The position numbers and the translations under genes are program-made. A stretch of 17,644 bases of DNA from a virus (Duplodnaviria; Heunggongvirae; Uroviricota; Caudoviricetes): the IMG/VR virus record IMGVR_UViG_2737471835_000010, positions 1 through 17,644 of that record; one strand, given 5' to 3'. The notes beneath the pieces are model-generated. The model was not told where the DNA came from. It worked only from the letters and a program-made list of their open reading frames with translations, and did not search any database. Shown here one piece after another: positions 9,627-10,115 of the stretch; position 1 is the stretch's first letter; each line of letters begins with the position of its first letter.

Positions 9627-10115
9627 ATGAGTCTGTTAAATGACGTTCAGAAATTCATTGAAGCCCATCCTGGGTGTACTTCCGGAGACATTGCGGATGC
9701 TTTTGCAGGTTACTCACGGCAGCGCGTTCTGCAGTCTGCAAGCAAGTTACGTCAGAGTGGGCGTGTGGCTCACCGTTGTGAAGGAGATACATGCAGACAT
9801 TTCCCGCGCCTGACTGAGAGAGCGCAGGAGCCGGAACCACAACCAGTTCGTGAAACCAGACCTGTGCGCAATTTCTATGTCGGCACTAACGATCCCCGGG
9901 TGATTTTGTGCCTGACCCGCCAGGCTGAAGAACTGGAGTCAAGGGGCTTATACCGTCGTGCTGCAACCGTGTGGATGGCGGCATTCCGTGAAAGCCACTC
10001 CCAGCCAGAACGAAACAATTTTCTGGCGCGTCGTGAGCAGTGCTTACAGAAAAGCAGCAAGCGCGCTGCATCGGGTGAAGAGTGGTATCTGTCAGGGAAT
10101 TACGTGGGGGCGTAA
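9627..10115 (+). CDS. PerC-like transcriptional regulator with N-terminal winged-helix-like segment
   Basis: The ORF track starts at 9495, but ATG at 9627 directly follows the O-like stop. The C-terminal segment AEELESRGLYRRAATVWMAAF...RREQCL matches my recollection of the PerC-family core motif. Confidence 0.5.
   Translation: MSLLNDVQKFIEAHPGCTSGDIADAFAGYSRQRVLQSASKLRQSGRVAHRCEGDTCRHFPRLTERAQEPEPQPVRETRPVRNFYVGTNDPRVILCLTRQAEELESRGLYRRAATVWMAAFRESHSQPERNNFLARREQCLQKSSKRAASGEEWYLSGNYVGA

Follow-up and report, generated by a model that had tools for sequence, protein, structure and literature searches.

The DNA analysed here, a stretch of 17,644 nucleotides referred to below as the window, is a lambdoid prophage by its gene content. 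The following genes were recognized in it:

2276-3262, minus strand: integrase
3267-3506, minus strand: excisionase
6738-7430, minus strand: cI
7528-7788, plus strand: cro
7781-8338, plus strand: cII
8335-8673, plus strand: 112-aa protein of unknown function (PHROG 1170, no Pfam match)
8683-9624, plus strand: O-like replication initiator of 313 aa (PHROG 391, E 6e-135; Pfam HTH_36)
9627-10115, plus strand: yfdN-like coding sequence, 162 aa plus stop (open reading frame and sequence, DNA identity, PHROG 1324)
10115-10441, plus strand: LexA-DBD protein of 108 aa (Pfam LexA_DNA_bind, E 1.7e-18)
10438-10827, plus strand: RusA, overlapping the LexA-DBD gene by 4 nt
10847-11656, plus strand: KilA-N protein
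11658-12653, plus strand: DUF968 protein
12667-13419, plus strand: Q
14027-15079, plus strand: type II-like DNA methyltransferase (PADLOC MTase_II, E 3e-152; PHROG 67)
15084-16778, plus strand: lysis genes, from holin to Rz-like spanin

The protein encoded between cII and the O-like gene is conserved and also present in SfIV, and the LexA-DBD/RusA pair matches PHROG 362 and PHROG 34. The methyltransferase at 14027-15079 sits between Q and the holin, the interval that holds stx in Stx phages; in related phages, a Dam, MT-A70 or D12 methyltransferase is found directly after yfdN instead. At the right end, two overlapping plus-strand reading frames (16878-17357 and 17345-17644, the latter running off the window) match PHROG 518 (Rha-like regulator/anti-repressor) over profile positions 1-60 and 73-170; they probably derive from a single gene interrupted by a frameshift, or from a sequencing error. 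Two further plus-strand reading frames lie beside the integrase. The one at 1-1053 matches neither Pfam nor PHROG, and the one at 1455-2252 has no Pfam match and matches only the unknown-function phrog_9664; both may represent cargo or flanking host DNA. No Rfam family and no tRNA was detected in the window.

The gene of interest lies between the replication gene and Q, in agreement with the replication-region location given in a preliminary description of this DNA. Its limits, read from the sequence, are an ATG at 9627 and a TAA at 10113-10115, the same as in that description, and its sequence identifies it as an intact, ordinary copy of the lambdoid-prophage gene yfdN, encoding a protein of ~18 kDa. 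The features of the gene are:

9616-9621, plus strand: Shine-Dalgarno-like AGGGGG, 5 nt before the ATG at 9627 (read from the sequence, putative in function)
9627-9812, plus strand: winged helix-turn-helix domain, aa 1-62, basic, pI 9.1 (AF2, PDB profile, Foldseek, Pfam)
9813-9893, plus strand: variable, acidic, proline-rich linker, aa 63-89, predicted disordered (pLDDT 57-59; family alignment)
9894-10058, plus strand: PerC/ANR-type three-helix core, aa 90-144, pI 10.3 (Pfam, NCBIfam, AF2)
10059-10112, plus strand: C-terminal tail, aa 145-162, with the motif W-x-L-(S/A)-G-N/R-Y/F-x-G (alignments; pLDDT 53-57, low confidence)

Many database copies of yfdN are annotated two codons longer (MIMSLL..., 164 aa). 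In the window, this form would begin with a GTG at 9621, in overlap with the stop codon of the preceding gene. The AGGGGG lies just 5' of this stop, the TGA at 9622-9624 that ends the O-like gene, and is better placed for the ATG at 9627. The gap between the stop of the O-like gene and this ATG is 2 nt. At the other end, the yfdN stop shares its last A with the ATG of the LexA-DBD gene (TAATG, A at 10115). No plus-strand promoter-like site was found from cro to 10828 in a simple scan, which leaves room for an internal promoter. Packed this closely against its neighbours and lacking a promoter-like site on its strand, yfdN has the appearance of an early gene expressed upon induction.

By megablast, the gene has 97-98% DNA identity to SfIV, SfII, mEp460 and several Stx2 phages; to yfdN copies overall, its identity along the entire reading frame is 95-99%. 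The phage copies are variously labelled 'putative protein YfdN', 'PerC family transcriptional regulator' or 'transcriptional activator', and the copy of SfV was recovered by tblastn with the PerC of EPEC. About half of the complete E. coli genomes carry yfdN (2674 of 5426), including K-12-type O16:H48 strains, in which the gene is 95.5% identical and adjoined by yfdM, and CFT073. In PGAP annotation it appears as 'yfdN: PerC family transcriptional regulator', and RefSeq has entries by the thousand under the PerC-family name. The profile of PHROG 1324 ('transcriptional activator') is matched over the full length and in the same domain order (E 5e-77, residues 1-161 on positions 15-166 of 172), and all 29 diverse relatives of YfdN match it as well. 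Searched exhaustively, a set of 1.84 billion representative proteins yielded no more than 100 matches at E <= 1e-3, among which the two-domain layout is retained down to ~25% identity. Public annotation already includes the gene, its assignment to the PerC family and the additional N-terminal domain, none of which is new as a finding. The architecture larger than classical PerC, to which the preliminary description drew attention, is real as far as the added winged-helix domain is concerned, but it is the standard layout of the annotated family (yfdN, PHROG 1324 and the RefSeq entries).

In the literature covered, from which Porter et al. 2005 is missing, no functional study of YfdN was found, only screens and lists; that paper reportedly tested PerC-like proteins. 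YfdN is still listed as uncharacterized, and it belongs to a predicted 'negative regulation of transcription' interaction cluster (bioRxiv 10.1101/2025.05.07.652715). A reporter strain used in work on the Pch proteins was deleted for yfdN (PMC5931665). In CFT073, yfdN was up 12.6-fold under a condition with raised SOS genes, and prophage genes beside it were up as well (PMC5320621). A role in anti-phage defence was considered and dropped, as PADLOC gave no match for YfdN.

The AF2 model of YfdN predicts with high confidence (pLDDT 94-98 for residues 3-60) an N-terminal domain with helices at 3-13, 19-25 and 31-43 and beta strands at 47-52 and 55-60. A profile search of the PDB, using the 29 diverse relatives, pointed to the winged helices of MarR, BlaI, MecI and PapI (E 4e-4 to 3e-3). 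Foldseek returned ArsR/SmtB, SlyA, BlaI and MecI, superimposing at ~2 Å rmsd over ~62 residues with a probability of about 1.0, though with E-values of only 5e-3 to 0.09. Furthermore, Pfam MarR_2 or Penicillinase_R matches the N-terminus of nine of the 29 relatives; weak matches to PapI/FaeA were also obtained from the N-terminus of the family. The winged-helix-like segment noticed in the preliminary description is thus borne out, and the N-terminus of YfdN is predicted to be a MarR/BlaI-like winged helix and a putative DNA-binding domain. The window copy differs in nothing of substance from YfdN of the CPS-53 type. At residue 56 (9792-9794), which belongs to the wing of the domain, it has a Cys, whereas Arg is found in most of the close homologues aligned (DTCRH vs. 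DTRRH). Across the family alignment, the linker that follows differs in length and in sequence. Both folded domains are basic (pI 9.1 and 10.3).

The C-terminal segment (AEELESRGLYRRAATVWMAAF...RREQCL, residues 100-120 and 135-140) had been assigned in the preliminary description to the core of the PerC family, and profile similarity is indeed present. Pfam PerC (PF06069) matches residues 98-149 (nt 9918-10073) with 36.3 bits (E 7.1e-9), above the gathering cut-off of 22.6 bits, and it also matches all 29 diverse relatives, which are 24-47% identical. In BLASTP, residues 98-143 are 37% identical over 46 aa to residues 6-51 of EPEC PerC (reference sequence from plasmid pMAR2; E 9e-7), a resemblance well above chance level. 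When YfdN is aligned with pMAR2 PerC, Sakai PchA and PchE, seven residues are invariant (A100, L103, G107, R111, A112, R136 and C139), and YfdN contains the core motif common to these proteins, A-x2-L-E-x2-G-h-Y/W-R-R-A-A-x2-W ... R-x2-C. This correspondence is confined to the first ~50 positions: the match to PF06069 covers positions 5-56 of 90, so that it is not a full-length one, and the C-terminal half of the model (~57-90) has no counterpart in YfdN. PerC is, in addition, a small single-domain protein of about 90-105 aa, whereas YfdN, with 162 aa, has the winged helix and the linker as extras. A ~21-residue block and a different tail set YfdN apart from the PerC/Pch types; the tail stands where PerC and Pch have their ~40-residue C-terminal half, and its motif is kept in close as well as in distant YfdN relatives.

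By sequence comparison, the part of YfdN matched by PF06069 is the portion that PerC and Pch have in common with the ANR anti-activators. The NCBIfam model ANR_neg_reg (NF033650) aligns at positions 5-50 of 54 with 22.2 bits (E 9.5e-5), below its cut-off of 32. The ANR signature consists of A10, E14, A22, W26, A29, W43 and R47 on three helices, in proteins of <10 kDa found with an AraC-family regulator (PMC4983702). The counterparts in YfdN are A100, E104, A112, W116, A119, an Arg at 135/136, and C139; the counterpart of W43 is not conserved, and no AraC-family gene lies near yfdN in the window. AF2 models, including one whose alignment leaves out PerC, PchA and PchE, predict the core helices at 90-105, 109-122 and 126-144 with pLDDT >95. 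A fold search of the PDB with the C-terminal domain by itself found nothing significant (best E 0.56), and a family-profile search of the PDB found no solved PerC or ANR structure. The weak fold neighbours of the domain are TPR-like and MIT-like helical units (E above 0.5), a resemblance that is weakly consistent with a protein-contact module and proves nothing.

Among known systems, YfdN of the K-12 cryptic prophage CPS-53 (KpLE1) and the orthologues in SfII, SfIV, SfV, mEp460 and Stx2 phages represent the same gene, with the same architecture and the same position after O. The window differs from K-12 and from many phages in lacking the Dam methyltransferase gene (yfdM in K-12) after yfdN. 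PerC of EPEC (pMAR2/pEAF) and PchA/B/C of EHEC have the helical core in common with YfdN, and all are carried on mobile elements. In contrast to YfdN, PerC and Pch are single-domain proteins of 89-104 aa without winged helix, with a further ~40-residue C-terminal half; moreover, pchA is a separately transcribed gene of the late region, while yfdN belongs to an early operon. The ANR family (Aar, Rnr and others), negative regulators of AraC-type proteins, has the three predicted helices and most of the signature residues in common with YfdN. These proteins, unlike YfdN, are smaller than 10 kDa and have no DNA-binding domain, and YfdN stays below the NCBIfam cut-off of the family.

PchE and the PerC-like proteins of PICI/P4-like islands (Sakai Sp7, EcCIMP1_025) are divergent members of the PerC family from mobile elements, and their behaviour is unlike that of PerC: PchD and PchE barely affect ler (PMC5931665), and EcCIMP1_025 represses the LEE (PMC11773190). 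PchE, a single-domain protein of 90 aa, keeps the classical C-terminal half, which YfdN does not. The two-domain relative P0187 occurs in this type of island, together with an integrase and AlpA. Lambda Ren (L012:2381-2671) is another small, winged-helix-like protein which is encoded, like YfdN, right after the replication genes. The profile of Ren (PHROG 142) matches the N-terminus in five of the 29 family members (best E 2.4e-5; hhalign E 0.0045). Ren has no PerC/ANR core, and the similarity is weak and may be a generic resemblance between winged helices.

SfIV and Stx2a_1447 share the order O, yfdN, (methyltransferase), LexA-DBD, RusA, and relatives at 29-33% protein identity still retain it, with KilA-N/ANT, DUF968 and Q following. 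In relatives, the next gene after yfdN is a DNA methyltransferase that may belong to any of three unrelated families (Dam PF05869, MT-A70 or D12), whereas in the window and in SfIV, yfdN is intact and the methyltransferase is absent from that slot. Among eight distinct gene contexts examined, yfdN directly follows the O-like gene in six, and the replication modules seen in full among them contain no P, DnaB or DnaC-like gene. Two-domain relatives away from O occur in the island carrying P0187 and after RecT; hence, the link between yfdN and replication is not obligatory, and the idea of an obligatory coupling was dropped.

The replication module of the window itself (8683-10827) likewise has a single O-like HTH_36 gene and no P, DnaB or DnaC-like gene; the route by which the host helicase is loaded is not evident from sequence in the group of SfIV, SfII, mEp460 and the CPS-53 type. 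The O-like initiators, otherwise ~31% identical, have a near-identical end, ...(D)Y..IP.GFRG-COOH (8683-9624 in the window, which ends in ...DYSQIPAGFRG; L003:3258-4076, L005:4132-5004, L011:3150-4004 and L014:9895-10986 in the other loci). This tail looks like a short motif for docking to a partner. The similarity of the window to Stx2 phages begins in the last ~25 codons of the O-like gene. A specific link between the tail and YfdN was considered and dropped, as the replication protein of Sakai Sp4 has this tail too, and its downstream neighbour carries the annotation 'phage DNA replication protein' and is not yfdN.

What the computation establishes is the domain architecture of YfdN, its place in the PerC family and the tight packing of its gene. 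For its function, the reading we prefer, and to which we give about an even chance, is that of a modulator, directed to DNA, which acts on H-NS-type silencing or on host regulators and is produced from the pR operon during lytic development. It draws on analogy with the Pch proteins. The gene would share a transcript with the O-like gene in the early-right (pR) operon, the translation of the two being coupled, and the protein would be made after infection or induction rather than in the repressed lysogen. The winged helix would place YfdN on DNA, while the PerC/ANR core, a predicted helical hairpin that resembles a protein-contact module more than a DNA-binding one, would act on other regulators. 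The most likely action would be the loosening of silencing complexes of the H-NS/StpA/Hha type, as shown for Pch at LEE1, with modulation of phage, and possibly host, transcription during lytic development as the outcome.

Pch activates only where H-NS/StpA/Hha silence; under its action LEE1 is less occupied by H-NS, and in vivo Pch is found associated with DNA (PMC4764244). Pch did not co-precipitate with H-NS in the same study, and the direct molecular target of the PerC/Pch family is therefore itself unsettled. Helices 2 and 3 of ANR proteins mediate their binding to AraC-family regulators and to H-NS (PMC4983702, PMC5570504). The absence of the C-terminal half of PerC/Pch means that a Pch-like activity may not transfer to YfdN. 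Furthermore, the sign of the effect is unpredictable, because a PICI-encoded PerC-like protein represses the LEE rather than activating it (PMC11773190).

The rival to be weighed most seriously, although we regard it as rather unlikely, is an ANR-like anti-activator, in which the core would inactivate a regulator of the AraC/XylS family (e.g., GadX or GadW) or titrate H-NS and so repress host programmes. The matched region is exactly the one in common with ANR, most signature residues are present, and ANRs bind AraC-family members promiscuously, GadW of E. coli included (PMC4983702); the repression of the LEE by a mobile-element PerC-like protein and the predicted interaction cluster of YfdN point the same way. 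On the other hand, it is the PerC model and not the ANR model that scores above its threshold, W43 is not conserved, and ANRs are small single-domain proteins usually encoded beside an AraC-family gene, which yfdN does not adjoin. The preliminary description had instead proposed a lysogenic-conversion regulator, one that would switch on host virulence regulons such as the LEE in the manner of PerC and PchABC. Such a role would suit the Pfam PerC membership and the precedent of PchA-C, which are prophage-encoded activators of ler (PMC5931665), yet we consider it very unlikely: the setting of yfdN within the pR early operon (the 2-nt gap, the stop overlap and the lack of a promoter-like site), the missing C-terminal half and the presence of the gene in about half of the complete E. 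coli genomes, K-12 and CFT073 included, all disfavour it. By contrast, pchA in Sakai Sp4 stands alone in the late region on the opposite strand. Nor is virulence activation to be assumed from family membership, since PchD, PchE and the PICI homologues do not activate the LEE, or even repress it.

A function in replication is highly improbable as well. In this explanation, YfdN would occupy the slot of a lambda P/DnaC-like loader and help the O-like initiator to recruit the host helicase. The recurrent position right after the O-like gene and the full modules devoid of P, DnaB or DnaC-like genes favour this, as does Sakai Sp4, where a related O with the IPxGFRG tail is followed by a 'phage DNA replication protein' in the place of yfdN. 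However, YfdN has no similarity to any helicase loader, its family is otherwise regulatory, two-domain relatives are found away from O, and the conserved O tail is not restricted to phages with yfdN. Finally, the methyltransferases of three unrelated families next to yfdN, the weak PapI/FaeA matches of the N-terminus and the annotation of SfV, which puts a dam promoter inside the 3' end of its yfdN copy, could suggest that YfdN regulates, or works together with, the phage DNA methyltransferase encoded next to it, much as PapI works with Dam-sensitive sites. This seems scarcely probable: the slot is without a methyltransferase in the window and in SfIV, yet yfdN is intact in both, and the PapI/FaeA similarity is that of winged helices in general.

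The modulator reading can be extended, at a much lower and rather doubtful probability, to YfdN-type (wHTH-PerC) proteins as a distinct class of DNA-targeted PerC/ANR modules. They would be made by temperate phages and satellites early after induction and would act on specific DNA, overriding silencing of the H-NS family or disabling host regulators. In a more remote variant, the protein would take over the helicase-loader function that is absent beside the O-like initiator.

YfdN-type proteins are very common, and their architecture and gene context are conserved. The label 'virulence activator' is unsafe for them because of the lack of the C-terminal half, the added winged helix and the early lytic operon. 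If the distinct-class reading is true, these proteins would represent a widespread regulatory interface between phage and host, given their presence in about half of the complete E. coli genomes, and would offer a handle on the mechanism of the PerC/Pch/ANR fold. Functional work on YfdN-type proteins could reveal the real contacts of the PerC/ANR core.
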